A stretch of 64,000 nucleotides of DNA, taken from assembly GCA_000091205.1 (NCBI GenBank), contig AP006493.2, one strand, 5' to 3'. The position numbers and the translations under genes were made by a program. Positions 14,374-47,639 of this stretch are shown piece after piece. Within the stretch, counting starts at the first letter, position 1. The number at the start of each line of letters is the position of its first letter. This DNA comes from Cyanidioschyzon merolae. Taxonomy: Eukaryota. The notes under the pieces are model-generated. The model searched no databases and was not told the origin of the DNA. It saw only the letters and a list, made by a program, of their open reading frames with translations.

Positions 14374-15513
14374 TTGGACTCGTCTGCACCGGAAGGGTGT
14401 CCAGGTAAACGGAAAAATATGCCAGGAGAAGCGACCTCTACAAGGCAACCTGGACGAGAGCTGCGAATGAATCACGTGAACAACTTGACAATGTACGAAC
14501 GCCGGAACTGGCCGCGGATAGTTCAGGACATTGAGGAAACGCTGCGTCAGTGTCCGTCTCTGCTTCCGGCTATCGCTGTGCGTCGCTTTGAGGACGGACG
14601 GGAACAGCGATTGGTGGTTTTGCGAGGGACGGTACCCATATTCTATCGTGGTGTCCAGTATAATATTCCGATGGACTTTTGGTTGCCGGCGGCGTATCCA
14701 GCAGAGCCACCTGTGCTCTATGTAGTTCCGACGAGGCACATGCAGATTGTGCCCATGCATCCGCACGTTGGTAGTACGGGTCGGGTGTACTTGCCTGGCC
14801 TAGTGACATGGAATGCGAGCGAAAGTCGCTTGCACTTTATTGTTGCGGAAGTGAGTTCAAACTTTAGTAGGCGTCCGCCGGTTTACTCCATTCATCCGCG
14901 CAACACGCATGCGACGCAACAGAGTCGTCCTGCGGGAACTGGCGAGGCAGCGACTCCTGGGCATGCTCCGACTGCTGCGACTGATGCAGCGACGGGGGCA
15001 ACACAGCATCCCGGCCGCACCGTCCTTCGTCAGCGAATACTCGAGCGAGCGCGACGGCGTTTCAGGGACGAATTCAGGCGAATAGCGGAGCTACAGCAAG
15101 CTTTAGAACAGGAGGTGGCAGCTGCGGCGCAACTTCACGACGACCAGGGAGCGATGAGAAGCACAACGCCCCCCGAAGATATGGCAATCATTCAGGAGCA
15201 TGCACGTGTATCCCAAGAGCTCCAGGCGGTTCGAGAAGAAGTCGAAGCGCAGGAGGAATGGATAGATGCTCACCGGGAATTAGAAAGCGACCCGGATCTC
15301 GAGACAATCCTTGCATCAACGGACGCTCACACCAATATGGTGACTGAGGCGCGAGCATCGGAACTCGCCATCCAAGATACACTGCAGCTTCTAGAAGATG
15401 CACTGCGCCGGGGGCAAATCGATATTGATAATTTTCTGCGACTCGTTCGGGAGCTTGCCTATCGACGCTTTTTCATCTGTCGTCATCTGCGAACGCTGGA
15501 TGGCAACACGTGA
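14374..15513 (+). CDS. TSG101: ESCRT-I subunit TSG101/Vps23 (UEV domain plus C-terminal steadiness box). Alternative starts are at 14419 and 14467.
   Basis: RGTVPIFYRGVQYNIPMDFWLPAAYPAEPPVLYVVPTRHMQIVPMHPHVGSTGRVYLPGLVTWNASESRLHFIVAEVSSNF matches the UEV domain. The C-terminal ALRRGQIDIDNFLRLVRELAYRRFFICRHLRTL matches the TSG101 steadiness box. Confidence 0.8.
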   Translation: MDSSAPEGCPGKRKNMPGEATSTRQPGRELRMNHVNNLTMYERRNWPRIVQDIEETLRQCPSLLPAIAVRRFEDGREQRLVVLRGTVPIFYRGVQYNIPMDFWLPAAYPAEPPVLYVVPTRHMQIVPMHPHVGSTGRVYLPGLVTWNASESRLHFIVAEVSSNFSRRPPVYSIHPRNTHATQQSRPAGTGEAATPGHAPTAATDAATGATQHPGRTVLRQRILERARRRFRDEFRRIAELQQALEQEVAAAAQLHDDQGAMRSTTPPEDMAIIQEHARVSQELQAVREEVEAQEEWIDAHRELESDPDLETILASTDAHTNMVTEARASELAIQDTLQLLEDALRRGQIDIDNFLRLVRELAYRRFFICRHLRTLDGNT

Positions 15514-15724
15514 TCCTCGTCGGTATCGGAGGCTGCACTGGAAACAGGTGGCTAGCCCCATCGATGCAGATCGCAACTTGCAGCGGTTCTTGTCGGGGAG
15601 AGTGTTCGCTCGGTGCAGGTGCCCCGATCAATGCACACCGCCAGTCACCCGGACGAAGGCCTGATACCACGACATGTATCCATGGTGCATCGCATTTGTA
15701 CCTGACGTGGACCGTCCTGCCGCC

Positions 15725-15852
15725 GTGGCGACATGAAAAGCATAACGGAGAAGGATGTCGTGCATGAACATCGCTGCAGCGGGTGACGATGTATCTATGG
15801 CAACATGAAAAGCATAACGGAGAAGGATGTCGTGCATGAACATCGCTGCAGC
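15725..15852. repeat. Tandem duplication with an approximately 72-bp period, 2 copies
   Basis: ggc(g/a)acatgaaaagcataacggagaaggatgtcgtgcatgaacatcgctgcagcgg occurs twice. It produces the duplicated MFMHDILLRYAFHVA in a spurious minus-strand ORF. Confidence 0.8.
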
Positions 15853-16850
15853 GGATAACGATTCGTTTGGCGCTCTGGGAAAGAGATCTCGCTCGCCGGT
15901 CGTTCGGGTTCAGAGAATGGACGGTACCCTCGTTCAGGGTCTTCCGTCCGATGCAAGTCGCTTCTGTGGCATCTTGTCGAAGCGCACTCGCAGCGTACCC
16001 GACGGAGGCGTCATTGGTCAACGGCAACAATGCGCACCACGCATTCGAGAACGTCAATGCATCGGGGTCCCGTACCAGCAGTATCTCAGCGCCGCAGACT
16101 GCCTGGGTACACTTTGTCGCTCCAGTGCCATGGATCTGCAGCACAATGACATTATCCGAGAGACAGGGCCGCTTCGTCTGCCTATCAAGGATCTGGATGC
16201 TGCCGTTTTCATGGTGAACACGATCGCATATTGTGATCTGTCACCGAAGCGGTAGTAGAGTCCAACGCCTCCAGCGCATGTTCGCCTGTGTGCGAGGTAA
16301 GCATCTCGATGCTGAGGACGCCACATATTGCGCTGGTGGTTATCATGCTTATGCATTGATGCACAGTAAACATTCTCTCTGTGAACTCGTGTACAATGAT
16401 GCGGTGATTGGCGTTTCCCCCATCTATCGAGTTAGTTAGCTGCACTGCGCTGTCCAGTGCACCACCATCCTCTCGGATCAACGCTTAGAGTCGTCTTTCG
16501 AAGGACACCGCTGCTCGCCCAACGGTCGGTTTTCAAGTCAACTTGCACAGAGTATTCACTTTAAACTGTTTGCATCAACCAGAGATGACGTTATGGGTAG
16601 CGCGCGACCGTGCCAATGCAACAGCAAGCGTCACCAGCGATGTGGCCTGCGCACCACTGCGTCCACAGAAGAGACGCAATCAACTGGTTTCGAAACGATC
16701 CAAACCGACTCGGTGCTGGAACGCATCGTCTTTACTTTGATCTGGATACCCCGACGACGAGAACGTATGTCTGTGCAGCATGGTACAGTGTTCGCCTACA
16801 ATTTCAAACCAGACGGTACAGTGAATGCTAGAGAATGATCGGACACCAGG

Positions 16851-17618
16851 AGTGTTTAAAAATAACGCAGAAGACTCGTTCTTGGTGTGTATGGACGGCT
16901 ATCCAGCATCTCTGGATCCCTCAGCCGCACCCTGCAAGTGCACTGCTTCAGGTGAGCAAGCCGTGGCCTCTCTCTCTGTCTCTCTGCTGGCCACTGAGCG
17001 ATTCCCCATCACAAGTCCGCAGCGATTCAGCATATCACGCCCGTACACGGCACTAAAGTACTCACTGAACGATTCGTTCGATGCATAACCGTTGCACGAT
17101 TTGGAATCAAACGACCCATTTCCGAATGTTGATCGAGGTGTTCTGATATCGGTGCAGAAACTGCCTGCGTGTATGGACGGTGGCGAGAATCACACGATAT
17201 CACGCCGATTCCTGTCGTTTTCCTCGTTATCCAGCGTTCGTTCACCTTACTCTACACCATCCCGTGCATTCAGCTCTATTTCACACGTTCATTCACTACC
17301 TACTTCAACGTGCACTTGTACTCATTCTGCGTCCATGTCGTCCTGAACACATCTACGCCCGTAAAGCAGCGTCGATACCAGCACTCTATGTGTGCCGAGG
17401 TCGAGGGCGCACGAGTGCAGCATTTGCGCACCACGGCGTGTCCAGCGTCATAGGATACCACCGGCAGACGACGCGATGTATCAGTCATTTCTTTTTGCGG
17501 CTCATTGAACAAGCTGGAGAGTCCCCAGCGCACGCTCATGGAAGCCTGCACAAAGTCGTCCGCTTGGTCCATATGGACGTTCATAGATACGCTCAGTGAA
17601 CGAGGCTCAGAACAAAGC
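16851..17618 (+). repeat. Copy A of a 768-bp dispersed repeat (solo-LTR-like, with TGTT...AACA termini). It is inverted relative to copy B at 42181-42945.
   Basis: It is the reverse complement of 42181-42945 at about 98% identity, shown by identical 139-aa, 94-aa, 84-aa and 87-aa ORF translations on opposite strands. I located the homology boundaries by direct comparison of the flanks. Confidence 0.9.
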
Positions 17619-20217
17619 ATGCGGCTCTGCTGGGCACTTTCCTGAGCGTGTCAAAATTGGTCCGAGCGCCATCATTCCCTTTTGTTGGTATGCTTCGTCG
17701 CGTCCATGATGTCTAGCGTTCGATAACCATGCCCCGGAAAAGTTGGGGAGCTTCACTTGCTTTCCGTTCAGGTTTTTGGCTCCATCCTCTCAGCTTCCAT
17801 GTGCAGAAACAGCTGCATTGTTCGCCAACCCATGATCTAGGCTCACCACGAAGTTTTGCTCTTCACATACTTGAGCATTGAACATGCATCTCGTCGCTCG
17901 ATGCAGACCAAGGTTTCAAAATAAGACATGCAGATTGACATTCCGTCGGTCTCCATTGTTCCTGAAAATTTATTTTTATTTCTTTCCTGTACATTAGAAA
18001 GCTTGAGCGAGCTCAACGGATACATTACGCAAAGCTTTTCGAATGCCTCCGGGTTGCTCGCGGTGACCAGCTTCTTCTTCACCTTCTCCGGTCCGTTGTG
18101 TGATGCAGTAGACGTGGTAACCATACATTATATCTATTTCCTATCATTCGGATTCAGATGAAGTGGGTAGACGGCGACACTGAATCTCGCCTCTTCTATT
18201 TATTTATTTACTATTTCTCATGTATCTTTTAGGCAGCTTTTCCGTACCGAGGCCGCCCACTGCGCGAATTGAAGGTTCCCGTTCCCTCCTGCGCACGAGC
18301 ACAAGAGCAGAAGAGCGAAAGCTCACTTCAGGGATGGTGGAGGTAGTAGAGGATGATTCGTCGATGAAAGCTGTCATAGATGCGAAGACTCATCCATCGA
18401 TACGTGAGCGTCGACAGGGCATTTCGCAACAGCGAAGAAGCCTCCCACAGGATTCATCCAGGGAGAATAGACTGGGATGAAGAGCAGCTCTATGCAAATT
18501 TCACTTGGTTATTCGTTAACCGCTTTTGAGTGATGGAGAGCGACATTATCCAAGAGCATGACAGAGGAGTGTGGGAAGAACAAGCCACGAAATGTGCTTC
18601 GACACCGAATGGAGGGTAGAACGATCCTGTCCGTTTGACGATTTGTAGGCGACCCCACATCAGCGTCGCATCTTAAATGGATATTGTCGGAATGTTCCAT
18701 TTTCTGTTCAAAAGAACCGGTACTTTATCCAGCTTCGGGTACCCGTGTACAGGTCCAATCTTTCTCCCGAATCAAGTTTCATCGAATGAGACGAATATCC
18801 GTCCCTATTGTAAGAAGAGATCGCGTTTTCGTGCAAAATCGATCGTTTGTTTTTCTTTTGCGAGCGACGCTTCCGTACAAAAGCGAGCTATCTTATTTTT
18901 CCATCAGTATCTCTTCATAAGCGTTCGTAGCGTCGGTGCGGAAAAGTTCAAATTCTGTGGCGTTGTTGGCAGTATTTCTTGGAGAACCTATTGAGTGGAA
19001 TGGATTGAATAACAGATGATGGTGTAGATGGAATTTCGTTAGTCCTGGTATGGACGCGCCCTATTCAGGATGAGGACTGCGAGAAGGAAAGCTCATCCAC
19101 ATACTGACTAACTGTAAAATGCCTGGTACCTATTAGGCCGTGTTCCGTAAGCTAGCAATAATATCATAACGTCTGTAAGCGAGTGTTCTCCAGCCTACTG
19201 GATAGATTCCAGTTTTCGAATACCTTCGAGAGAAACAAACAAAACATTCATTGCATGTTGCTCCATGTGTTTGAGAATTCACTGCACTGGGTACAGCGCA
19301 GATTGCGTTGTATGAGGAGCTCAGGAAACACAGTCGTATTCGAATTATGACTCGGAAACCGGCGTCTACCCCAGACCGGAAACGCCTTTCGCACGTGATC
19401 GAGACAGAGCTCCAAGCCAGTGCGCGTTCACTGGAAAGCCTGCTCCTCTTCCGCTTCCTTCGCTCCATGGAATCGTGCTCCCGTCAGCGCGAATACGCGT
19501 CCATCACGAGACTGTTACTCGCGACCCGGGTACCTAAAACGGCAACGTTTTGCACAACGGCCAGAAGGTTTTACGTCCAATACAAAACATGTACTGTTGC
19601 GGACCCGCAAGCTCCATCGCTGCTCTTTCGTTCATACTAGATTATCGGCACAGAGAAACCGCGGCAACCGGCATCCAAGCAATCTCCAAAACAATCGCGG
19701 ACCATGATCGTCTGCGGAGTGTGTCTAGAATCACATTCCTTTTGTGCAAGCCGGACTGCTTCGGTCATGATTTGTCAGTTGATCAATCGAATGATCTATC
19801 TGCTGTTTATCCTACTCGTTGCCCGTTTTGCAACGCTAATTGCACACTCACGTGACCAGAGCGGGAAAGCGGAACCAAATACCACTCCCATGACCCCAGA
19901 AGGCGACGCAAACGCTCGAACGCAATGCAACATACACAACTCTGCAACTTGTGAGACATACTCTACAGCGTCGCCTGCAGGAGTTGAAGAATACTCGATG
20001 TAGAGTGTAAAGGGTGCAGTTTGGTTCAAACCTGTTGACTGCACGCGCAAGGCAAATATCCCAGAGGCGATGGAGCGCAGTTTGCAGCTTCTTGGACGGT
20101 TTGCACTGCACAGAACGTGCAGTGTCCGCCAAGCAGGTTCAACAACGAAAACAAGCAACACCGCGAACTACTGACGAACGCTGCTGAAGCAAGCAAGTGT
20201 CGCCAAAGCAGTCAGAC

Positions 20218-20562
20218 TCAAGCGTCCATGGCAGCCGGCTGGTCACTACGCGTGAAGCCGTTCTGCGCCAACTCCGCTGCAAGCTTTGCAGCAAAGTCCT
20301 CGTCCTGATCGATCATTTCCCAGTCATCTTGCCATTCGAGTTCATCCTCTTCAACAGCAGCTAGATCTGGTTCCCAGTTGTGAAGTTCAAACTCATCAAA
20401 GTCGTCATCTTCTTCAAAAAAGTCCAAATCGTCCTCGAGTCGATCCGCCCTCTTTTGCTCGCCTTCCACCGCAGCAGGAGACCGCTTTCCCTGTTCTCCC
20501 CCTTGTCTCGCGCTCTGTGCGGCTTGCCCGTTGGTGTGGGTATTGTTCGGTTCCTCAGGCAT
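20218..20562 (-). CDS. SEM1: 26S proteasome complex subunit DSS1/Sem1; the start is placed at the internal Met of a longer ORF
   Basis: FEEDDDFDEFELHNWEPDLAAVEEDELEWQDDWEMIDQDEDFAAKLAAELAQNGF aligns with the DSS1 signature (EEDDEFEEF...W....W.DNWDDD..EDDF..QLR.ELEKHG). Confidence 0.65.
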   Translation of the reverse strand: MPEEPNNTHTNGQAAQSARQGGEQGKRSPAAVEGEQKRADRLEDDLDFFEEDDDFDEFELHNWEPDLAAVEEDELEWQDDWEMIDQDEDFAAKLAAELAQNGFTRSDQPAAMDA

Positions 20563-21754
20563 GAGGTTCTTTGGTTCACTAGTCACGACAGCAGTCGTAG
20601 CTACGTACTGGTGCAGCGCGCACAACAATGGTCGCGCCATGCTTACAGCGATACGCACTCCAGCTCTTGAACGTGTTTCACCGCTTCGACTCGTGTGATG
20701 CTCAGTGTTCGGCTCGTGTCCGTGATGGTGCAACAGCTAGACAACAAGGAGCAAGAAAATAACGCACGAGTGATTGTCCTGTGCTGAAACTGAGAAGTCT
20801 ATGGCTTCGGAAGCAATGCGCATGAGCGGCTTTGGAAACTGTTTTTCGGAGCGCAAGCACCTGGGGCCAGGTTGACTAGCAATGCAAGCGCCAGGGTTAC
20901 ATACCGTTGCTTGAACTGTATTGAGCTAGGGATGAAAAGGTAAACTGTGCTCTCGTCCTCTAGTTCTGGAGACCGTTTAGCAGGGAGCGCGGCAGGCCAG
21001 GTGGCAAGCGCCGCTCCTCACATCCGTACAGCGAGTCAGTTTGTTTTAGTGAACCTGCTTCGCTCCGCTCGGAAAGCTGCTCAGAGCGAACGAGCCTTGT
21101 ACTGGATTACACTGGAATATTTGCGTTTTCTCCTTGTTCCAAGGAGGTTCACAAGGCTACCACGCGAATAACTCGGATACCGTGAACCTGCACTGACTGG
21201 TTTCACTCTTGATGAGCCACGGATACCGAGGTTACGCCGGACTGAACACCCTCTTGGAGTACGAGAGAGATACTTGGAAAGCATCTGAGCGGACGTTTGA
21301 CTGAGCCTGCTACCGGTACACCACAGATGTCCATGACTGTGGGCCCGGAACAAGCGCGTATCCCGTGAACGAAAGCGTCATCGTAGCGCCTCGGCACGAC
21401 GATGAACTCCGATCAACATGGATACCCACATTGTGCTGAATCCGAGCCGACAATCTCTATAAACCCGGCACTTGGAAAGTGTTCGAGGATGCCATTCAAT
21501 ATAAACTTTTGGAATACGCTTGCTACCGATCGTCATGAACTAGATATTGCATGTCGTGTCGTATACGGCGGTACGCGAAGGACTGTTTGCTGGGGCAGCT
21601 CTCTAAATGAGACCAATGCTCGGTATCTTTAAACATTACGCGAATTTCTCTTGTGCATCATTCCCCAGGAAAGCCAGCAACATAGACGGGGACAGCGTAC
21701 TCCTCGCAGCAGCGCGCTCCCTGCGAGACTGTTCATGCTGCCGCCACCCCGCTG

Positions 21755-24700
21755 GTGTCGCTACAGCTTCCTGTGTGTAGCCATGCTGTACGAACATATC
21801 TGCTCTGTCTACCATTCAGCGTGTGCATCATACGTGCAACAGTTTTTCTCATTGGTCCTGGGCAACGACGCAAGCAAAAGCAAAGCGTACTGCCTTCATG
21901 CATTAAGCGCGATACTCTGAGCCTCGTCGTTACGCAAGTACTAGCGTCGCGCAGGGACGCTCACGGTTTGACCCTCGCCACTGCCTTCGCGGACGCTGAG
22001 CGAATCGTCAGTTCGGAAGTGCTCGTCTGCTTGTTCGCGAGCTTGAGCGTTGCACACAAGTCACCGGCTTCGATGCCTGAGCCAGTGGACGATGCGCTCC
22101 GCAGGCGACTGCTACAGCCCGAAAGCCTGCGCGTTGAAGGTCTCTCGAGAACGCAGGACGCCCAACTGAGTGACTCGCTGAACGATGATGAAGAGATAGC
22201 AGTGCGCTTTACCGGGCAATCGGGCTCACCCCAGGCTCAGAGTGGAAATCTGAACCGAGCGTCTGCCCCTTTCTTAGGATACTTTGCTGAGGTGTCCTCA
22301 GCGACACCACGGCAGGCACAGCATGTGCAGTGGAAAGCAGCACGTCGTCGACTTGTTTGCATTTTGTTGGTTCTGGTCCCCGTTATCGTCATGATCGGCA
22401 TCGTTGCAAGCCTCCGTCAATACATAACCGAGCACGGTACGGAGAGTCTCGTTCGAAAGCGCCTATCGCACTGGGGTATTGCCGCAACTGTACCTCTTTA
22501 TAGCGAGAAGCGCTGGCGACGTGTATGGAATGCAACGCTCACTTACACAGGACAGCGAGGCTTCTTTGGCGTCTACATCGGAAGCGGTGCCTCCAACAGT
22601 ACCCTGAACAAAGTATGGCTTGAAGTACCGATCTCCGAACTCGAGCAGCCGTTCGTCATCGATAGTCTGATTACCCGCGGCGATGCTGAGGCATTCATGC
22701 TTCATGCTCCCTCTAACCGTGCACAAGAGAACTGGTTTGCCTTGCGTTTAGGGAAACCACGTCCATCATGGGCAGTTGATCTGTATCGACCCCAGCTCGG
22801 GGTGCGCATTCAGCATAACGACTCTGAGCTGGCTGCGTCCTATGCGGCAGGCACATGGACCGGATGGAGCAAGATCCTGCGGATCGTGGCGGTGACGTAC
22901 CAGGATGCGCTGTCCGTGAACAAAACAGCGTCGTTTGAAAATGTAACAGACGAAACGAAAAACCTTCGCTTGATCCTGGACGTCACTCCCTGGGTCAGTG
23001 ACGGATTCGCGGTGCTCTCGGAAGATGCACCCGCAAAGCTCACCGCGCAGACGAGCTCGCCCGCGAAAGCGCCCTGGTCTTATCGGGTCATTGCAGCGAA
23101 AGCGTATCCAGGTAATGTCGAGATCCGAGTGGAGGCTATGTTTCCACAGAAAGAGGCTGCCAGCGGCTGGAACCCTTCGGGTGTCTCTGCAGCAGAGATC
23201 TCCTTCCAGCTGGTGCGGCTCCCATCGGATTCGCTTCCACTCAGACTCGCAGACGAGCGAATCGGCTACTTTACGACGTCGTTTCTGTTGTTGGATCACG
23301 ACGAGGGAATCCACGAACGCATCGATGTCATCAATCGTCGACGCTTACCCACCGTATTCTATATCGATCCGACAGTTCCGAGTCGCTGGAGACTTTGTCT
23401 CAAACGTGGCGTGGAGAACTGGAACCTCGCCTTTGCTCAGGCCGGTTGGAATAAATCTGCGGCTAGGGTAGAGCCAGCGATTCGAGCCGTCCTCCCCGAG
23501 GACAGCGACTGGCCCTCGGACTACGATATCGGTGATATTCGTTTCAGCACCATCAGCTGGTCGCCTTCACTTAACAGTGTCTTCGCGCTAGGACCGAGCA
23601 ATATCGATCCACGTACTGGGGAAATTCTCAACTCGAATATTATCTTTACGCACGGATGGATTCGCAGTCTGATGCGACAATACACAAATCTGGTCGCTGC
23701 GCAGCAGCGCTTGACTGCACCGAACGACAGCAGTCGTCTCAGTGGACAACGTCGGAGTAGCGAAGCCTATCCCATGGCGAGCGTCTCCACCGTGCGCGAG
23801 TCGCCAGCGCTGCGTCGTGTTCAGCTCGTGGATGCTGCGCGCCTGGATACAGCAGCGTTTGCGATACTCGAGGTTATGGCACTGGTGTCGGATGTCGGCG
23901 ATGTACCCGAGAGATTCATCTGCGATGCGCTCATCGATACCACGATGCATGAGGTTGGTCATGCACTCGGCTTGCGGCATAACTTTAGGGCGAGCGCGAA
24001 CGTACGCTGGCAGGATCTGAGCGATCCCGAGTACGTTGAACGCAACGGGATCAGCTCATCGGTGATGGATTACCTTCCGATTTTGATTTTTGCCGATAGT
24101 CAGAAGCAAACGCGCTATTTTCAGCACGTTATTGGAGCATACGATATCTTGGCTATTCGATATGGATATGGAGGGAGCGAGCGCCCCACGCAGCTGTTGG
24201 AGCAGTTGCATTCCAGCAGTCTGTCACTGCGCCAAGCAGTCGACGAAGCATTGACGGAGCACCGTGTGGAGCTCGCACCGCTTGCCGAGCAGGCCGTGGA
24301 GGCAGGTCTCCATTTTGGTACCGACGAAGATGACCCCAGTCCGAATGGTGTGGATGTCTATGTTTCGCAGTGGGATCTCTCCGACGATCCGCTCGCGTAT
24401 CATGAAAACGTTCGACTGGTTGTTGGGCGAGCGCTGTCGAGTCTGCGCGCCCTTGTGCATGAGCGCGACCTTTCATGGAGCGATTACTCTGAACTTGTCC
24501 GGTACGCGCTCTTCTTTGGGAGTCGCAGTGCGCTCTATGCAACCAAGTTTCTCGGGAGCATTGAGCTACGTCGGGGTCACCCCGCGGATATTGCCCCAGG
24601 CAGAGCAGCTCGCACCGTCCAGGTGCCGCGCAAACCCGTCGATACGGAGACGATGCAGCGGGCACTTGGACTCTTGCGGCGCCTGCTGTCGCCACTGGAC

Positions 24701-25300
24701 CACGAGGCGATCCTGGGTGGTGGCTACCCAACGTGGGCTCTGGACCTTGTCGAGCCTGCTGGCAAGTGTGACGGTGTGGTTACTCACTGTCTGGGTACGA
24801 GACCGGTTTCGGCTCTGACGCTGCTGCAGCAGACGCGAAGTCAGGTACTCAGTTTGGCCCTGCATCCACAACGACTCGTCTGGTTGCAAGAGAACGCTTT
24901 ATGGGGGACAGCGTCTACGCTTCCACTGCATACATATCTGGAGTTATTGACGAACATGTTTTTCGATCCGAAGAATGTAGAAACGAGTCCAGAAAAATTC
25001 CCTCTGGTGCGGGACGCCCAAGTGGACTATGTGCTTGCGCTCCGAACCTCGTTTCTGAATATGAGCACGACGTCAAAGGGCCAAGGTGCAGTCTCCGCTG
25101 TTGCGTATGAGCTTCGTCGAATTCACTGTTTGGTGCGTAGAATGCTAGAGGCACCGGCGCCTGCTGCAGAAAACACCTCCAGCGACACGATGCATCGAGC
25201 GCACCTTCTCGGTCTCAGCGCACTTCTCGGTGACAAGTTTCCGCCGCTGGACTCACCCAGTCTGTACGGGATGCTCACTGTACCGTGTCCGACTAGTTGA
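21755..25300 (+). CDS. Membrane-anchored zinc metalloprotease of bacterial metzincin type (HEVGHALGLRHNF). It has one predicted TM helix (LVCILLVLVPVIVMIGIVASL); the true start may be the downstream Met (MPEPVDD...).
   Basis: The 1181-aa ORF has an extended zinc-binding motif TTMHEVGHALGLRHNF (HExxHxxGxxH) in a large C-terminal domain. This resembles bacterial DUF4953/DUF5117-type metzincins more than eukaryotic ADAM, MMP or astacin families. Confidence 0.75.
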   Translation: MSLQLPVCSHAVRTYLLCLPFSVCIIRATVFLIGPGQRRKQKQSVLPSCIKRDTLSLVVTQVLASRRDAHGLTLATAFADAERIVSSEVLVCLFASLSVAHKSPASMPEPVDDALRRRLLQPESLRVEGLSRTQDAQLSDSLNDDEEIAVRFTGQSGSPQAQSGNLNRASAPFLGYFAEVSSATPRQAQHVQWKAARRRLVCILLVLVPVIVMIGIVASLRQYITEHGTESLVRKRLSHWGIAATVPLYSEKRWRRVWNATLTYTGQRGFFGVYIGSGASNSTLNKVWLEVPISELEQPFVIDSLITRGDAEAFMLHAPSNRAQENWFALRLGKPRPSWAVDLYRPQLGVRIQHNDSELAASYAAGTWTGWSKILRIVAVTYQDALSVNKTASFENVTDETKNLRLILDVTPWVSDGFAVLSEDAPAKLTAQTSSPAKAPWSYRVIAAKAYPGNVEIRVEAMFPQKEAASGWNPSGVSAAEISFQLVRLPSDSLPLRLADERIGYFTTSFLLLDHDEGIHERIDVINRRRLPTVFYIDPTVPSRWRLCLKRGVENWNLAFAQAGWNKSAARVEPAIRAVLPEDSDWPSDYDIGDIRFSTISWSPSLNSVFALGPSNIDPRTGEILNSNIIFTHGWIRSLMRQYTNLVAAQQRLTAPNDSSRLSGQRRSSEAYPMASVSTVRESPALRRVQLVDAARLDTAAFAILEVMALVSDVGDVPERFICDALIDTTMHEVGHALGLRHNFRASANVRWQDLSDPEYVERNGISSSVMDYLPILIFADSQKQTRYFQHVIGAYDILAIRYGYGGSERPTQLLEQLHSSSLSLRQAVDEALTEHRVELAPLAEQAVEAGLHFGTDEDDPSPNGVDVYVSQWDLSDDPLAYHENVRLVVGRALSSLRALVHERDLSWSDYSELVRYALFFGSRSALYATKFLGSIELRRGHPADIAPGRAARTVQVPRKPVDTETMQRALGLLRRLLSPLDHEAILGGGYPTWALDLVEPAGKCDGVVTHCLGTRPVSALTLLQQTRSQVLSLALHPQRLVWLQENALWGTASTLPLHTYLELLTNMFFDPKNVETSPEKFPLVRDAQVDYVLALRTSFLNMSTTSKGQGAVSAVAYELRRIHCLVRRMLEAPAPAAENTSSDTMHRAHLLGLSALLGDKFPPLDSPSLYGMLTVPCPTS

Positions 25301-26410
25301 GGTCGCGTTCGCGGGTGCATACGAGAACATCCTGAAGTTGATGTCCGGGTGGAGTGTTCGCGATACCGTCGATGTCATAGATGTTATCGGGTTTGTGTCG
25401 ACGCCAAGCAAGTCCTGGACTTGTCAGCGTTACACGGTTTTAGGGGACGGGTGAAACAGTGGGCGCGGCACTGGTACTCTAGTTGCACAACTTGTTTGGA
25501 TCCGGGGAACGTGTCGCAAGAGGTTCACGTTGTGGGTGGTATCCTTCTGAACTCTAGCGATTGCCCGCCTGTGTGTACATCAAAAGTGCAGTACAGCAGC
25601 CTTGAGTGCCGGGGTCTCGAAGGGTCCGTCTACTCGTCAGCGCTTGCGTCTGTTCCACTGAAGCGGTCTGCTCTAGTTGATACAGCAGTCGCGTCAAGGC
25701 TCGTTCCCTCTAGCTCTGGTAGACCGCTGCTGTCTGCATAAGTATTTCGCTGGTGCCATGTGTCGCGTTTCGCAGTCTTCCTCTCCGACTCTACTGACAT
25801 GCACCTGTCGGCGGTGAGGCAGCGTCTTCTCAGCACCCGTTTGAATGGCTCCATATCAGATAAGCATACTGATTCCAGAGTGTTTTCCTCTACGATCACC
25901 AATGGACTTGTTCGGAGAAACCCTCATGGCGAATCTCGTCTTGGTACAATGCGCGCCGTACTTGCCACCGCTGTGACCTCCTAATAATCCGTGACGTTGA
26001 AGAAACACCCTAATGCGACCTCTCGGCGTCCTGAAGGTGTCTTCCAGTAGCTCGTGTGATGATTAGCGTCGCAGCGAATGCTCGAATGTCGAGTAGGCGC
26101 TGCGTTTTGACGTCACGTGGATGCCTCGTACCTTCACTAGCTCAAGCAGTGCAGACCGGTGAGCCGCTGGTGTGTTCGCTACCTTCTGGATGCCAAAGAC
26201 TAGGTTGCTGCGACAGTGAACTTCAAAGATGATGGTGAAAGCGACACGTTCAGGGGATCGTTGTCGCATTTGTGTGCGAGAGGAATCATTCGCAGCAGCT
26301 TTACAGCGAATCCGCTGGCAAGGAGACTGCACCCGTATATAGAAACGATTGGAACAGATTCGACGCACAGACTCGCGAAACTGGAATTTAAAAAGCAGGA
26401 TATTTTACTC

Positions 26411-29280: not shown

Positions 29281-31054
29281 TTCAGAAAGCTGAGCACTGC
29301 TGCACAGCGTGGATGAGGAAATCCTCGTGTACCTGGATGCTTAGTATCGAGCTCCAGAGGCGCAATGAATCCAACGAGTGCGATGGATTCTGCCCCTAGC
29401 GGCTGCTGTCTGGGCTTCGCCTGGGTAGAACTGCGAGCAACTGGCAGCCTACAGGTGTACTTGGATGCATGCGAAGAACCCGTTGAAAGGTTTACTCGCT
29501 GCTCGGCACGCCGAGGATCAAGCACGGTCGACAAATAGAAGGATCATTTCACGCATCGTACCGCAACCCGAACAAGCGTTGCCACCCTCGACTAGTCCGG
29601 ATCACAGAAGGAAGCACTCCAAGATGTCAACGTCGGGCCGCGTCAACAAGGTCCACATCGAGCGGGACCATACCTTCAGGTGTCTGCAGTCTCTCCCAGT
29701 AATCAACGCGGTGCCCGCAGCTGCTCCACATACAGGTCTATAAAGTTGCGCGCACCACTGCATAAGACGTATTGCCTCGACGAGTTGATGGATGCGATCC
29801 AAACAGGGCCCGCTTTCGGGGCGATAACCTCGCGCTGAACGCGGTTCAGGGCAAGATGCACTGTATGCTGGCCGAAGACGCAACCTCCAAGCGTCAGTGA
29901 AGGGATCGCTAGCGAACGGCCCCCGTGCGTCAGGGCCTCGGCGTCGTCCGTACGATCCTTGGTATGAACGGGGTATGCGTCCGTCGAATCCCGCTGTTTC
30001 GCAAGGGGAAACACAGTGCAGCGGCGCCCTAGCCAAGCGAATATCGCGCTGTCGGCGCTAACCGCTACAGATTACCGCCGCGGTTTCAGCGGCAGAAAGA
30101 AAACGGCCAGTTCCATCACAGAAGCTCCCAAGCGCTCACGCACACATCTGCAGGTTGCATGAGAAACTTGTCCTGCTTGTTCATGTGTTGCTCATCGAGT
30201 GACCGATCCTCGTTTCTACTCACCTGAGCCACAGATGGCGCCGGTTCACTTCCAAGGAACGAGGTTTCAGGATTCAAAGTTTCTCGATTCGAAAATGAAT
30301 ACTTGCTGATCGCGTTGGAAGCTAATGTCGCTTAAGAAGAACAAGGGATCAAGCACCGGGCGTACCCGCAGCCCAGGGCAAAAGAATTCCGGCGGCCAGC
30401 ACTCTGCGAGTCGTAGCCGGAATCCGTCCTCTACTCGAAGCTGGTGTATGATCAAGACCCTAAGAGAGCACCTCGACTTGCTCCAAAACGACCAACGCCA
30501 CTGGGCGGATCGTAGGCCGCAGACGGCTAAGCGGTCTGCAACACGTCGCTGCTCTCTGTGCAGAGGCACCTGGGCTATGTTGCGGCGTTCCAGAACCCTT
30601 TCAACATTCTAAGACCCGGTGACGGCGTTTGATACGCTGATAAGAAACCACTTTGCACGGTTTTAATCACAGTCCTACACAGAATCTTATGCAAATCTAG
30701 GTGGATCTAGGCTACAAGTTCGCCATGGGACGTGTTCGGTACAGTAGCCGAGCAGCAGTGCAGCGCCCGTATCGCTCCATGATCATTATCGCTTGGCTGC
30801 GTTGCGAAGCGCTGGGCGGGTTTGCTAGACCCTCGAGTGCCCGGATTTCCACGGGTTTCCACCATCGCTTGGAATCTTATATTCATAACTGCGCTAACTC
30901 GATGAATACTAAGGCGAGGAAGGTTCAAGGGAACCGTCATCCAAGGAACACTGGTGAATTCGTCTTCTCAGGAGGGCGTGGCGTTGACGAGCGTTTCTGT
31001 AGACGCGCGTTTGCCGAGCCTTGTGCCACAGAGGTGGTTCCAAGCTCACCTAGT

Positions 31055-32338
31055 ATGCTCGCTTGGACGGCGTCGCCTTCGCCTTTTCGCCGATGCACGT
31101 TGAATGCTGCTTCCATATCGCCTCGGAGAAGCGCTTTCGCGAGGTGCCCGCTCAGACCCCTCGGTCGAAAGGCGTTGCGAGCGCGCTTGCACGCGAGCTT
31201 AGAGCCACCGCGAGACACTGCAGCCACCAGTTCCCATGAATTCACACATCACGTGACTGAGAAGGCCAAAGATTGGAGCGGCTCTGGAACTTGGCTGCAA
31301 AGCTACATCGAGCAGGGTCCGCTGGCGGCGGCGATTCCCCCGCAGTATGCGCCAAGTCGCTCGCTCTCGCGCTGGCAGGCATGGGGCTCGTACCTATTTA
31401 AAGAACTCGGCTTGGACGGGACCCTTGAGCGCGATCAAAATCGCATTTTTCGTTTCTATTTACCTGTTTTTGCCTGGTCCCTACATGTTGTCAACCGACT
31501 GCAACGAGACGAGAGACGGAAGCAGCACGGCGTCATTATCGGACTGCAATGCCCTCAAGGAGGCGGAAAGACCACACTGACAGCTGCACTCCAGAAATTA
31601 TTCGATCTCGAGCAACGTCGGTGTGTATCTCTCAGCATCGATGATTTTTATCTAACTCGTCGCGAGCAGGAGGCACTAGCCAGAGCGTTTCCCGAGAATC
31701 CGCTGCTGGGCTCAAGAGGCAACCCGGGGACGCACGATATCTCGCTTGCGCTGCAGGTTTTGAACGAGGTGGTAGCTGCACCGTATCCAGGGGAACATGC
31801 AGAGGTTGCGGTGCCGCGTTACGACAAGTCCGCCTTTCAAGGACTGGGCGATCGTGCTCCGCCAGAGCAGTGGCCCCTTGTGAGCCGGCCTGTTGATGTC
31901 GTCTTCCTGGAGGGCTGGTGCCTCGGATTCCGACCGCTGGCGCTACACGAGCGACCTGCTACAATGGACCCGATTACCTTGCGTCATTTGATGCAAGTCG
32001 ATCGATTCCTCGCGGAAGACTTTAGTCGGCTCTACCCGCTCTTGGATGCATTTATTGTCATTGCATTGGATGGTCCGAAATTAAGTGAATCCTTACGGAT
32101 TGTGTACCAGTGGCGCCTCGAGGCTGAACAGCAGATGCGGGCTGCAGGGCGACCAGCCATGACCGATGAGCAGGTCTACGCGTTTGTCGATAAGTTTATG
32201 CCAGCGTACAAGGCGTATTTAGGTGATTTGTATGGCGGCCCGCCTCTTACTGGAAACTTGTCGCGGGAATTGCGCGTTGGTATCGATGAAACCCGCTCGC
32301 CAACTCGACTGAACCCGCACTCGGAGCTCGTTCCTTGA
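31055..32338 (+). CDS. GLYK: D-glycerate 3-kinase (plant/algal GLYK type), with a predicted plastid transit peptide. The open frame begins at 30701.
   Basis: GLQCPQGGGKTTL (P-loop)...SLSIDDFYLTRREQEALARAFPENPLLGSRGNPGTHDISLALQVL...VPRYDKSAFQGLGDRAP...VVFLEGWCLGFRP is colinear with plant GLYK. The Met at 31055 is followed by a Ser/Arg/Ala/Pro-rich stretch (MLAWTASPSPFRRCTLNAASISPRRSAFARCPLRPLGRKALRARL). Confidence 0.8.
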   Translation: MLAWTASPSPFRRCTLNAASISPRRSAFARCPLRPLGRKALRARLHASLEPPRDTAATSSHEFTHHVTEKAKDWSGSGTWLQSYIEQGPLAAAIPPQYAPSRSLSRWQAWGSYLFKELGLDGTLERDQNRIFRFYLPVFAWSLHVVNRLQRDERRKQHGVIIGLQCPQGGGKTTLTAALQKLFDLEQRRCVSLSIDDFYLTRREQEALARAFPENPLLGSRGNPGTHDISLALQVLNEVVAAPYPGEHAEVAVPRYDKSAFQGLGDRAPPEQWPLVSRPVDVVFLEGWCLGFRPLALHERPATMDPITLRHLMQVDRFLAEDFSRLYPLLDAFIVIALDGPKLSESLRIVYQWRLEAEQQMRAAGRPAMTDEQVYAFVDKFMPAYKAYLGDLYGGPPLTGNLSRELRVGIDETRSPTRLNPHSELVP

Positions 32339-34810
32339 GGCACGACGTATAGAGTGCTCCAAGCTGCAGATGAGCGCCTGTGCGTAGCGCAAGTCCATGC
32401 GCTCTGAAGTACAGCCAATGACGATTGCTTCGCGGAGTCGAAGACTGCTTTGCATGCAGACTGCCGAGGTGTCAGCAGGGATGCAGAGGCACAACTCGAG
32501 TCATCCAGAGAATCTTCACAATGGTATGTGATGGATCTCAGTGCGGGTGCTTTGCTCGTGGGTCCGGGGACTCGCGTTGCGATTCGAATCCGGGTGTTTC
32601 CTGTGACCATAGCCTTCTAGGCTTGAATAGCTTTCACAATTTGTTGCTAGTGCATAGCGGCTATGGAATACGTGCGCATTCGCGGACGCTCTAAACAGGA
32701 TATCTTGGGGGCTGTTTTGCCTGTGAGCTTGAAATCCGTGATCGCCTGTTCCACGAGAGAAACACAGACGACGGAGTTCTCTTCCAAAGGTGTATGAATG
32801 TCCACACTGGCTGTTGCCACAACAGGCACGGTCTTGGCAGCTCGTGCTACAGCCTCTGCTTCCTACAGCATCTTCGCTTCAGTCACGAGTTCGATTTGCG
32901 TGGATAACATGCCTCATCGCTATGCGCGGCGTCAAGCTGGACGGGAAATTCTGCTGCCTCCACGACTAGGCGTGGAAACTGCGATCCTGAATCTGGTCAA
33001 ATCAGTGCTAAAAAAAGGTTAGTAATCTGGTCCAAGGAACTGAAGCAGGTCGCGGGGACGCCACCGTTTTGATGAGCGTACGCTGGCGACCAGTTGCAAG
33101 CGACTGGCAGGTCCAGGCACTACAGCTGGCCGCTGCTCGAAGAATACGCCCATCGACCGGGGCGCGTCTCACGACACTGAGACAGTTGCTGGTAGCGACA
33201 TAACCGGTTCCGTCTCGAATGGCCAACATAGGGAGCACACTGCCAGAGTAAGCCCCATTGTGTTCACGAGTCGCCGTCCATGAAGGACGGTCGCTCTCGC
33301 TCGTTCCATTGCTGATTCAGTGCAGGCTGCCGCTGCCAAACATGGGGCGCAAGCACCCCAACGCGGCAGCAGGTTCCAGCGCTGCACCATCGACAAGCGA
33401 CGTTCACTGTCGCGCAGCACTCCCGCTCTTATTGGGGTTCTGTGGTTGCAGTCCCGCGAGCAGAAGTGTGCGCGACCTGAAACGCCCAGCTTTGCTTACC
33501 ACCGACACTCTCTGACCTACTGTCCGGGGACTTTCACCCAGAGCCAAACGGCTGGCATCGAATCAGGGCGCACCTGTTCGCACCGAGCCTGGTTTAGGGG
33601 CTAATCCAGGACCCTCCCGTAAACCGTACGTAGCGCTCTGATAACGAGGAACGCTTAGCAGAGTCTTCCCCGAGTTGATCCGTTGCGTCCGGAGCAATTC
33701 CAGTTTACTTACGTTCTGTTGGGCGCGAAAAAAGCAACATTAGCTTATTGAGTGTGTGCTGGCGTCGGTAGCCAATGTTCTCGTGGTGAATACGTCCACG
33801 GACAAGGCGACTGCCACGGGCTGGTTGCGGATCCGCGTAGACTTTCCTTTGGGAAAAGGATCGTTTAAACGACACAGAGGTCCTTCACCCAAAAAAAAGC
33901 CCCGCTCGGCAGATCGCACAACATGCCGCAGCGTTTCTTCTAATTCCGTCAACTAACCACGTCCGAAGCCTCATTGGTGAATACGAGTCAGCTCGAACAA
34001 GACGGCACCGAGTTGTCGGAGCCGCGCCGAGGCGCGTCAAGACGGCGGCGTCACAAAGATTACAGATTGAAACTAAACCATATGATATAAATAGAGTCAA
34101 TATATCCATTCCCACATAACCGCTTTGCTGCGCTGAGCATCCTATAGAGTCCGAGGAGAATGCTCTGGTGTCGTCGACACCGCAGTGGGCGAGGCCAGAG
34201 CGCTGCCTCCGGAACTATCGAGCATGCTTGGAGATAACATCCGCACGAGGCCGTCCTGAACGGTGATGCTTTGAGCTCGAGTTTGTCATGGTGTGGTGAA
34301 ACGCCCCTGAACGAGTGCGACGTCCACAGACGCCCGCCGCACGCACAGGGTACAGACGGTATCGAGAAGGCGCCCTCACTCCGTACCGCAACTGCCCCAG
34401 TGCACCCAATAAAGTCGCAACACACGTAGCCTACGTTCGTTATCCAGAAACTGAGTCGATCCATCTTACAGCGACGCCCGTGTGTGTCGCGGGTCTGCAG
34501 CTTCTGCGTCACGGAAGCGTCTCTAGTGATGCAGGGGTCGCCTTAGCTGGCTGTCGGCAGTCGAGATGAGTTCAAGACTGCACCCGGTGCATCGTAGGCA
34601 GGGTCCAGCAGCGCGCACCCACGCTACGTCCCATTAATACAGTTTTATCTATCTCTATGCTGATTTACTGTTCGCTCGTGGCGAATCGCCCAAGGCGCCA
34701 TTTTAGCCGTATTCATTATTTTTGAATTGCCGTGCTGCTTCCAGGAACGCTGGTTGCAACGAAACAGGCGTAGCGGTGTCTTCTCCTGCGCTCTCTTTCT
34801 CTCTCTCTCG

Positions 34811-46193: not shown

Positions 46194-47639
46194 ATGCGCT
46201 TGTATGACGTAGGCTGGGCGTTTGCTGCACCGGTCGGTCACATTAGCTTGCGTTCCAAGTCGGGGTCGAGGTGTGCGCTCCCGAACCGGGGACGTGAACC
46301 TTTGCGACCGCGGGTGTATGAAGCGTTGGGTTCGGCGAAGACCGCGAGACACTGTGTCTGTGCGCGGTTACCGGCACCAGCAGTACCGGCTATTCAACAC
46401 ACGTCCAGAGAGTCGAACGCGAGCTCTTACGCTGTCGTCGACGTGCTCTGGCCCGTGCTGCAGCGAGCGTGCACGCACATTGAGTCGAAGGATTCGCTGG
46501 AGCGCATCTTCCAAGCACTTCGACTATGTGCTGAGTTACCCGGTGAAGAGTCCATGATCAGTGTTCGCAATGCGGCTTTTCTTGCGCGTCTCGGAGTCGA
46601 CGCTGATACGATCTGTGCAGCGCTCGTGGATGCGCTTCCGCGAACCCTGCTGCGTTACCCGCCCTTGGATGGCGCTGTTCGGGCGATTGTCGAAGACCTT
46701 GATGCACTACGTGCCATCGAACAATCTGCCTTAGTGGATATCGGCGATCTTGATGAGCAGAACGCACGACGTCTTCGCGAGTACATTTTGATAGCTTTGC
46801 GCGATGCACGCGCGGTACTGGCACGCTTGACGCAAGTGCTGCAAGACTTGCAACAGAAGGTCGAGTCCGAATCACCGGCGTATGACCAGCAGGCGCTAGC
46901 ACTGCTCGTGCTACAGGTCCACGTTCCGCTGGCGTACGCGCTGGGCCTGGGCGCTGTCATGTGGCCTCTGGAAGATCTCAGTTTCCGGATTTTGTTCCCG
47001 TTATCGTATCGGGCGTGCGAGTCGTGGCACGCGCATATCTGGGAGCAAGCAGACCAGCTTATTCAAGAAGCGTGCGCCACGCTCCTGGCATCGTTGCAGA
47101 ATGATCCGGAGCTGCGGCGATATCGCTACGAAATAACCGGCCGCGCAAAAAACCTCTTCTCTACGTTCAAAAAGATGCTTCGTAGCGGGAAGCGGCGTGA
47201 GGATATTCTCGACATTGTGGCTTTACGCATCGTCATCGACGGCATCGATGAATCCACTGACCAACATGAAGTATGTATGAAGGTTTACAAGCACGTCATC
47301 AAGGTATGGCCGGAGTTGCCGGGACGATTTAAGAATTATTGTGACCAGCCCAAGGCGAACGGCTATCGATCGCTGCATACCACGCTCAGGCATCCGCAAG
47401 GCCTGCCCCTGGAAGTGCAGATACGATCACGAGAAATGCATGTAGATGCCGAGTTTGGCCTAGCTTCGCACAGGCTTTACAAAGGCCTGATCACCGCGAA
47501 TGCGTCTAAGATTCGTGAATTCAGCAGCTTTGCAGAGACGGTTCGTCTCGAGAATACGCATGTGCTGACAGACGCTTGTTCTTTCCAGATCGACGCCGCT
47601 GGTGAGCACCTCCATATGGCGAATGCAGAGGTGCAGTGA
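46194..47639 (+). CDS. RSH: RelA/SpoT homolog (RSH): (p)ppGpp synthetase domain with a degenerate HD hydrolase-like N-terminal region
   Basis: Synthetase motifs are present: [11 protein letters not shown]...[50 protein letters not shown]. The upstream region is colinear with the HD domain ([22 protein letters not shown] resembles [54 protein letters not shown] resembles [24 protein letters not shown]) but lacks the His-Asp metal ligands. Confidence 0.85.
   Translation: [481 protein letters not shown]

Follow-up and report, generated by a model that had tools for sequence, protein, structure and literature searches.

Is a bacterial-type zinc protease encoded among the nuclear genes of a red alga a recent bacterial import, a contaminant, or a eukaryotic protein of long standing? 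The question is raised by an open reading frame (ORF) at 21755..25300 (+) in a stretch of 64,000 nucleotides from Cyanidioschyzon merolae (assembly GCA_000091205.1, contig AP006493.2), referred to below as the window. A reading made from the sequence alone had described its product as a bacterial-type metzincin and a candidate horizontal acquisition, or else a rarely described eukaryotic branch of its family, domesticated as a membrane ectoprotease. The results presented here favor, with a probability of about 0.75, a vertically inherited, type II membrane-anchored and probably active zinc protease that belongs to a eukaryote-only clade. The evidence comes from family profiles and invariant active-site residues, from conserved gene order in related algae, and from trees in which eukaryotic and bacterial homologues separate.

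The reading frame and its protein family

The frame comprises 1181 codons, is listed from a GTG codon and contains ...TTMHEVGHALGLRHNFRAS... in its translation. Stop codons make up ~4% of random codons at the base composition of the window, and arithmetic from the base counts gives a chance probability of ~2e-21 for an open run of this length. The nearest in-frame stop upstream lies at 21683, and the first ATG is found at 22073. Because the first 106 codons lack an ATG and the annotated N-terminus of the orthologue in Cyanidiococcus yangmingshanensis (MSSALSREPIDAALRRRLLEP...) aligns with the peptide read from 22073 (MPEPVDDALRRRLLQP...), the coding sequence (CDS) most likely begins at this ATG and specifies 1075 amino acids (aa). 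The Cyanidiococcus stretch in this N-terminal alignment is …REPIDAALRRRLLEP. The continuous 3.5-kb frame claimed by the sequence-only reading is real and open throughout, but the 1181-residue protein that the reading took from it is most likely 106 residues too long. For the assembly of a closely related strain (SRR29605862), the gene caller placed the start 84 residues before the ATG at 22073, within the ATG-free stretch, giving a protein of 1159 aa. Residue numbers follow the 1075-aa protein unless the 1181-codon frame is named. The features of the gene are as follows.

21755..22072 (+): in-frame open stretch of 106 codons, with no ATG before 22073; probably 5' untranslated region and outside the protein
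22073..25300 (+): most likely CDS of the DUF5117/DUF4953 metzincin, 1075 aa and stop codon, based on the first ATG and a full-length orthologue match
22073..22351 (+): predicted cytoplasmic N-terminal tail, aa 1-93, acidic and of low complexity, predicted to be disordered (AlphaFold2 predicted local distance difference test, pLDDT, <50 for aa 1-96)
22352..22414 (+): predicted single transmembrane (TM) signal-anchor LVCILLVLVPVIVMIGIVASL, aa 94-114, based on hydropathy
22475..23392 (+): β-rich ectodomain, aa 135-440, which holds the DUF5117 match; its last ~55 residues (aa 385-440) overlap the catalytic domain
22970-23347 (+): Pfam DUF5117 match (PF17148), aa 300-425
23225..24217 (+): metzincin catalytic domain, ~aa 385-715, with conserved upstream motifs RLADERIGYF, YIDPTVP..W and GPS..DPRTGEIL
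23906..24973 (+): extent of Pfam DUF4953 ('Met-zincin' or EcxA zinc-binding domain, PF16313), aa 612-967
23948..23986 (+): zinc-binding motif HEVGHALGLRHNF, aa 626-638, seen in the frame and conserved in alignments
24059..24073 (+): Met-turn SVMDY, aa 663-667, recognized at the sequence level
24227..25231 (+): all-helical C-terminal domain, aa 719-1053, with the cysteine pair GKC899DGVVTHC906LG

Comparison with Pfam bore out the guess that the protein is related to DUF4953 and DUF5117. The DUF4953 profile (PF16313) matched over its positions 5-313 of 316 with an E value of 2.7e-47 and 162 bits (cutoff 24.2). DUF5117 (PF17148) matched N-terminal to it, at aa 406-531 in the numbering of the 1181-codon frame, with an E value of 2.4e-12 and 47.5 bits (cutoff 27). 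A third domain, DUF5118 (PF17162), gave no Pfam match in the window protein even at E<=1. The window protein is a genuine member of both Pfam families, DUF5117 and DUF4953, and belongs to the metzincin clan, whose catalytic fold it has.

The zinc motif reported by the sequence-only reading is present and carries the HExxHxxGxxH signature of the clan as HEVGHALGLRH (aa 626-636). Its H, E, G, H, G, R, H, N and F residues are invariant in alignments of 28 and 63 homologues. By sequence, H626, H630 and H636 are assigned as the zinc ligands and E627 as the general base. S663, M665 and Y667 of the Met-turn are likewise invariant in the homologue alignment, and the pattern S-[VI]-M-[DE]-Y was found in 183 of the 185 sequences examined. 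M665 is predicted to lie beneath the zinc site and to form the Met-turn. In astacins and serralysins, the tyrosine two residues past this methionine is a zinc ligand or 'tyrosine-switch' residue, and Y667 occupies the corresponding position in the sequence.

The absence of any close likeness to the ADAM, MMP, astacin and leishmanolysin families was also upheld. The matrixin model PF00413 (14.6 bits, cutoff 24) and Reprolysin_3 (15.1 bits, cutoff 22.4) stayed below threshold and covered only ~20 residues on the zinc helix; the MMP and reprolysin/ADAM models (PF13582/PF13688) reached E values of ~0.03. Astacin and leishmanolysin (M8) gave no Pfam match at E<=1. No NCBIfam model fits the protein, and the serralysin model NF035945 scored 15 bits against a cutoff of 500. 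Membership in the MMP, ADAM, astacin, serralysin and leishmanolysin families was rejected on these sub-threshold or absent matches.

Relatives and origin of the gene

The gene is intact and nuclear, as the earlier reading had held, and its genome is that of a Cyanidioschyzon-like alga within the Cyanidiophyceae. Its neighbours encode a Dna2 helicase-nuclease, Vps23/UEV (ESCRT-I), a DSS1/SEM1-like ORF, an enoyl-CoA hydratase (ECH), Impact/UPF0029, Mad3/BUB1, a RelA/SpoT homologue (RSH), EF-G and an amine-oxidase/PDS-like protein. A chromosome-scale contig of Cyanidiococcus shows the same gene order as the window, DSS1(−)–protease(+)–ECH(−)–Impact(+)–ORF(+)–(RNase MRP)–BUB1(+), which also recurs on two metagenomic Cyanidiales contigs; Cyanidium keeps the core DSS1–protease–ECH. 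Between the window and Cyanidiococcus the protease is 56% identical, and the neighbouring genes are 43-84% identical. GC content is ~0.55 through the window with no break at the protease gene. GC content at third codon positions (GC3) is 0.591 in the protease and 0.53-0.65 in its neighbours, and its relative synonymous codon usage correlates with that of the pooled neighbours at r = 0.80, within the neighbours' own range of 0.35-0.88. The gene and the sequence on either side of it are also contained in an independent Logan assembly, from a strain that is 99.66% identical. Strain SRR29605862 (L001) differs from window positions 21266-26218 by 17 single-nucleotide polymorphisms over 4,953 bp; its CDS has 7 amino-acid changes and 4 silent ones. 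No invariant residue is affected, and the differences are too few for a selection test.

When 1.84 billion cluster representatives were scanned exhaustively with HMMER, 3256 homologues emerged at E<=1e-3. The closest protein is a Logan-assembled strain sequence (99% identical), and the closest relatives beyond it are on a Cyanidiales contig from a hot-spring metagenome (62%), in Cyanidiococcus yangmingshanensis (CCYA10G2789, 56% over the full length) and in Cyanidium caldarium (44%). After the Cyanidiales, the best named matches are from the glaucophyte Cyanophora paradoxa and the red algae Porphyridium, Rhodosorus, Purpureofilum, Compsopogon and Pyropia, with Cyanophora and these other red algae at 38-44% identity over the matched stretches. 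Further eukaryotic relatives occur in a haptophyte (Emiliania), ochrophytes (Nannochloropsis, Heterosigma, Pylaiella, Scytosiphon), dinoflagellates (Togula, Effrenium), a chromerid (Vitrella), oomycetes (Pythium, Phytophthora), Amoebozoa (Stygamoeba) and a chytrid (Batrachochytrium salamandrivorans). No green plants or animals were among the named matches, and no systematic search was aimed at them. Bacterial genomes contributed 588 confirmed loci. The sequence-only reading had named Bacteroidetes and myxobacteria as groups in which the family is common, but they are not the nearest bacterial kin: Bipolaricaulota/Acetothermia, Gemmatimonadota, Planctomycetota, many Cyanobacteria, Betaproteobacteria and Poribacteria score best, all at 25-32% identity.

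Four of the homologues deserve separate mention. In the oomycetes, P0010 (Pythium brassicae) has an amino-acid permease fused at the protease N-terminus, and P0014 (Phytophthora kernoviae) has an AAA/KTI12-like kinase there and no DUF5117 in its precomputed Pfam list; both fusions are probably gene-model artefacts and not true architectures. The paralogues P0036 and P0037 fall with Cyanophora in the tree, and their N-termini are signal-peptide-like, not type II. The longest Logan contigs carrying them have the same length, 7,832 bp, and may be one contig with both genes in tandem; the pair could represent a tandem duplication in a glaucophyte-like organism.

Phylogenetic relationships were assessed by neighbour-joining with Kimura-corrected distances and 100 bootstraps over a ~760-aa core around the zinc motif. 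In a tree of 187 sequences, a group of 109 with all named eukaryotes separated from a group of 78 with all named bacteria in 100/100 replicates; within the former, Cyanidiales were recovered in 100/100 and red algae in 68/100. A larger tree of 293 sequences gave a corresponding split of 116 and 177 with support of 98-99/100, and the brown-algal and dinoflagellate proteins added to it fell on the eukaryotic side. The window protein is on the eukaryotic side in both trees. A small Bipolaricaulota-type group attaches beside the eukaryotic stem with support of only 43/100, and one of its members has a clearly prokaryotic gene neighbourhood. These trees suggest that the protease is a vertically inherited orthologue in a eukaryote-only clade of a mostly bacterial family, and they substantiate the idea of a rarely described eukaryotic branch. 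Because the family is so broad in bacteria, a single bacterial transfer of great age is the simplest origin of this clade; both that direction and that age appear plausible.

Three other accounts of how the gene arrived can be compared with this vertical inheritance. The leading idea of the sequence-only reading, a recent or lineage-specific transfer from bacteria into this alga or the Cyanidiales, draws on the overwhelmingly bacterial character of the family in the homologue searches and on the report that ~1% of Cyanidiales genes derive from horizontal gene transfer (PMC6629376; PMC13353863). However, the relatives follow roughly the order of the species tree, from 44-62% identity in Cyanidiales through 38-44% in red algae and Cyanophora to 25-32% in bacteria. 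The protease does not nest among bacterial sequences; the eukaryote clade is supported at 98-100/100, homologues are present in other red algae, in a glaucophyte and in at least 7 further eukaryotic groups, gene order is shared across three Cyanidiophyceae genera, and codon usage resembles that of the neighbours, with no compositional anomaly. The main text of PMC6629376 names no zinc metalloprotease among its transfer candidates, and the main text of a red-algal adaptation paper does not mention one. Such a transfer is very improbable. Bacterial contamination or a mis-assembled segment, to which nothing but the bacterial-type Pfam domains might point, has a practically negligible probability: GC and GC3 continue smoothly into the flanks, the order from DSS1 to ECH, Impact and BUB1 is that of three independent relatives, and the independent strain assembly crosses both boundaries. 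Both accounts are rejected. Endosymbiotic gene transfer from the cyanobacterial plastid ancestor would explain the presence of the gene in red algae, glaucophytes and lineages with red-derived plastids, and the distribution is indeed enriched in Archaeplastida and such lineages; many Nostocales and other cyanobacteria have homologues that are among the best-named bacterial matches. The cyanobacterial proteins, however, group with one another (98/100) far within the bacterial part of the 187-sequence tree, not adjoining the eukaryotes, and their mean distance to the eukaryote clade (1.71) exceeds that of Bipolaricaulota-type (1.58) and Gemmatimonadota-type (1.54) sequences. The clade also holds an amoebozoan, a chytrid and oomycetes, and an acidic N-terminus followed by a TM helix seems unlike a transit peptide. 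A plastid origin is thus improbable, less severely so than a recent transfer.

Topology, domain structure and proposed function

A type II anchor with one TM helix and a low-complexity N-terminus had both been proposed from the sequence, and both fit the protein. The hydrophobic segment LVCILLVLVPVIVMIGIVA has a Kyte-Doolittle hydropathy (KD) peak of 3.29 and is the sole 19-aa window in the protein with KD >1.6. It is directly preceded by WKAARRR, with a charge of +4 on the N-side, from which the positive-inside rule predicts an N-in/C-out (type II) topology. All 9 N-x-S/T sequons lie C-terminal to the TM helix and none in the tail. The segment begins at residue 94, and no bacterial-type cleavable N-terminal signal peptide was found. 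The tail contains a short conserved motif, PxDxALRRRLLxP, which is common to homologue P0002; one might speculate that it is a sorting signal.

An AlphaFold2 model built on a 28-sequence alignment (predicted template-modelling score, pTM, 0.77; mean pLDDT 72) shows a long helix across aa 94-133. The catalytic domain carries a variable, disordered insert at aa 552-590. The cysteine pair of the helical domain, C899 and C906, is C-terminal to the TM segment and occurs in 29 of 104 eukaryote-clade sequences as against 0 of 76 bacterial ones. A phmmer search of the protein against PDB sequences gave no match and a whole-chain Foldseek search against the PDB gave nothing significant; a profile search of PDB sequences matched the zinc helix of EcxA.

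Bacterial proteins with PF16313 and PF17148 share with the window protein both domains in the same order, an identical HEVGHxLGLRHNF motif and S-V-M-D-Y Met-turn, and a similar length of ~900-1000 aa. Their usual N-terminus is signal-peptide-like and often accompanied by DUF5118 (PF17162), which the window protein, like most eukaryote-clade matches, lacks. The window protein differs further in its 93-aa cytoplasmic tail and signal-anchor and in its place in a separate eukaryote-only clade. The bacterial members are annotated by NCBI as 'zinc-dependent metalloprotease', and PF16313 is named 'EcxA zinc-binding domain' in UniProt/InterPro. EcxA is the A subunit of the AB5 toxin EcxAB/CfxAB of E. 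coli and Citrobacter (PDB 4L63/4L6T), assembles with a cholera-like B pentamer, and has an activity about which little is known (PMC11610972). Only the catalytic fold is common to the two: EcxA is a 266-residue chain with 17% identity, and the window protein is four times larger, membrane-anchored and equipped with extra β-rich and helical domains. No cholera-toxin-like B subunit was found beside the protease, whose neighbours are DSS1 and enoyl-CoA hydratase, and the literature retrieved for 'EcxA' consisted of AB5-toxin papers only.

Among other metzincins, serralysins and astacins have a tyrosine zinc ligand or 'tyrosine switch' and an S-x-M-x-Y Met-turn, which the window protein matches in sequence with SVMDY. 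The residue after the third histidine is asparagine in the window protein, proline in serralysins and glutamate in astacins, and the accessory domains differ. ADAMs and MT-MMPs are type I proteins with a C-terminal TM segment or are anchored by glycosylphosphatidylinositol, and they have a pro-domain with a cysteine switch, whereas the window protein is predicted to be type II and has no recognizable pro-domain. Leishmanolysin (GP63) belongs to a different family, and no leishmanolysin Pfam match is present in the window protein.

These features suggest a working model. The disordered cytoplasmic tail and the one signal-anchor helix would hold a large extracytoplasmic body in the membrane, made up of the β-rich DUF5117 domain, the metzincin catalytic domain and the helical domain. 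H626, H630 and H636 would bind zinc and E627 would activate the zinc-bound water, with peptide cleavage proceeding as in other metzincins. The catalytic centre is complete (zinc ligands, E627, M665 and Y667), and the protein therefore most probably functions as a catalytically active zinc endopeptidase. Its substrates would be proteins or peptides at the lumenal or exterior face of a secretory or endolysosomal membrane, and the β-rich and helical domains may gate or present them. Cyanidiophyceae live at ~pH 1-3, at which His-bound zinc would be lost. Since the outside medium would strip the metal, the lumen of an internal compartment (ER, Golgi or vacuole) is the somewhat likelier site of action, with the plasma membrane a reasonable second candidate. 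Yagisawa et al. reportedly listed a vacuolar 'metallopeptidase', CMP249C, in a proteome of C. merolae polyphosphate vacuoles (Plant J, 2009), which is not used as evidence here.

Several observations weigh against the reading of the protein as a vertically inherited, type II-anchored, active protease, and two of them bear on alternatives to its parts. The trees are unrooted, their distances are saturated (1.2-1.6 substitutions per site), and many members of the eukaryote clade have no taxon name. A structure search found no informative or close solved neighbour for the β-rich N-terminal domain. A literature search across 8 million full texts returned no relevant paper on DUF4953, DUF5117, PF16313 or PF17148. 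The anchor does not appear to be universal in the eukaryote clade: as judged from sequence, an internal N-terminal TM segment is present in half of its complete sequences (41/82, compared with 3/72 in bacteria), and 25/82 have a signal-peptide-like N-terminus (54/72 in bacteria). This last count bears on the possibility that the hydrophobic segment is no permanent anchor: the ectodomain might be cut free, autocatalytically or by a second protease, and work as a soluble enzyme that is secreted or resides in the vacuole. Shedding or processing is common among metzincins; signal-peptide proteins are the rule among the bacterial homologues, and a third of the eukaryotic ones look signal-peptide-like. 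However, a helix 93 residues from the N-terminus lies too far in to be a classical cleaved signal peptide, and the arrangement of tail and TM segment is kept in Cyanidiales, other red algae, Cyanophora, oomycetes and others; release is unlikely. Finally, no published biochemical assay of any family member from any organism was found in the literature searched. With no activity shown in that literature and with large flanking domains of unknown function, a pseudo-protease with a binding or scaffolding role might be considered. Dead enzymes usually lose catalytic residues, yet HExxHxxGxxH, the Met-turn and the tyrosine are intact and invariant across the homologues, which makes a non-proteolytic role a poor prospect, slightly poorer than a plastid origin of the gene.

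The gene itself is ordinary for red algae, and nothing is overturned by its assignment: Pfam already contains the domain family, and UniProt lists its eukaryotic members under automatic names. The eukaryote-wide clade of mostly type II-anchored DUF5117/DUF4953 metzincins is, however, undescribed in the literature searched. Well separated and with a type II anchor that recurs among its members, it offers a clean case for studying when and how a bacterial secreted protease became a eukaryotic membrane protease. Tentatively, and with the odds somewhat against the proposal as a whole, the eukaryotic DUF5117/DUF4953 proteins may be an unrecognized ancient family of mostly type II-anchored metzincins that arose by one bacterial acquisition before the Archaeplastida radiation or earlier and was retained for conserved endomembrane or vacuolar processing. 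If so, eukaryotes would have one more metzincin lineage besides ADAMs, MMPs, astacins and leishmanolysin. The Cyanidioschyzon genome is minimal, with ~4,800 genes, and is among the smallest of free-living eukaryotes. The family is large (>3,000 representative clusters) and appears uncharacterized in both bacteria and eukaryotes, yet it is kept in this minimal genome. Cyanidioschyzon is genetically tractable, and its single-copy gene would give practical access to what the family as a whole does.

Other features of the window

The remaining features of the window are listed here.

10347-12920 (+): long ORF, 857 aa, no Pfam match at E<=1e-5
15500-20200: ORF-poor stretch of ~4.7 kb with a GC dip to 0.45-0.50, from base composition and ORFs
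15726-15862: 65-nt direct repeat with 72-nt spacing and 95% identity, just downstream of the Vps23 gene
20218-20733 (−): DSS1/SEM1-like ORF, Pfam 26.8 bits, below the cutoff of 32.2
30701-32338 (+): long ORF, 545 aa, no Pfam match at E<=1e-5
33236-33666 (−): RNase MRP RNA gene (Rfam RF00030, 81.5 bits, full-length model match), between the conserved 545-aa ORF and BUB1
42969-45932 (−): long ORF, 987 aa, no Pfam match at E<=1e-5
46194-47639 (+): RelA/SpoT homologue (Pfam HD_4 and RelA_SpoT)
48880-52995 (−): long ORF, 1371 aa, no Pfam match at E<=1e-5

The ORF-poor stretch is unusual for this compact genome and coincides with a synteny break relative to Cyanidiococcus, Cyanidium and the metagenomic contigs: upstream of DSS1 these relatives have an M16 peptidase and CpeT, as against Vps23 in the window. 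One possibility is a scar left by a rearrangement, another an AT-richer region resembling a centromere. The acidic C-terminal core of the DSS1-like ORF is 56% identical to the syntenic DSS1 of Cyanidiococcus, and the listed 171-aa ORF, which starts at a TTG, is probably much longer than the real protein. The RelA/SpoT homologue is a nucleus-encoded (p)ppGpp enzyme of bacterial type; nuclear RelA/SpoT homologues are known in plants and algae. The 545-aa ORF is a real conserved gene, since it is 72% identical to its syntenic counterpart in Cyanidiococcus. The RNase MRP interval is kept in the Cyanidiococcus locus as well, where L002 positions 20459-20710 match window positions 33377-33547.

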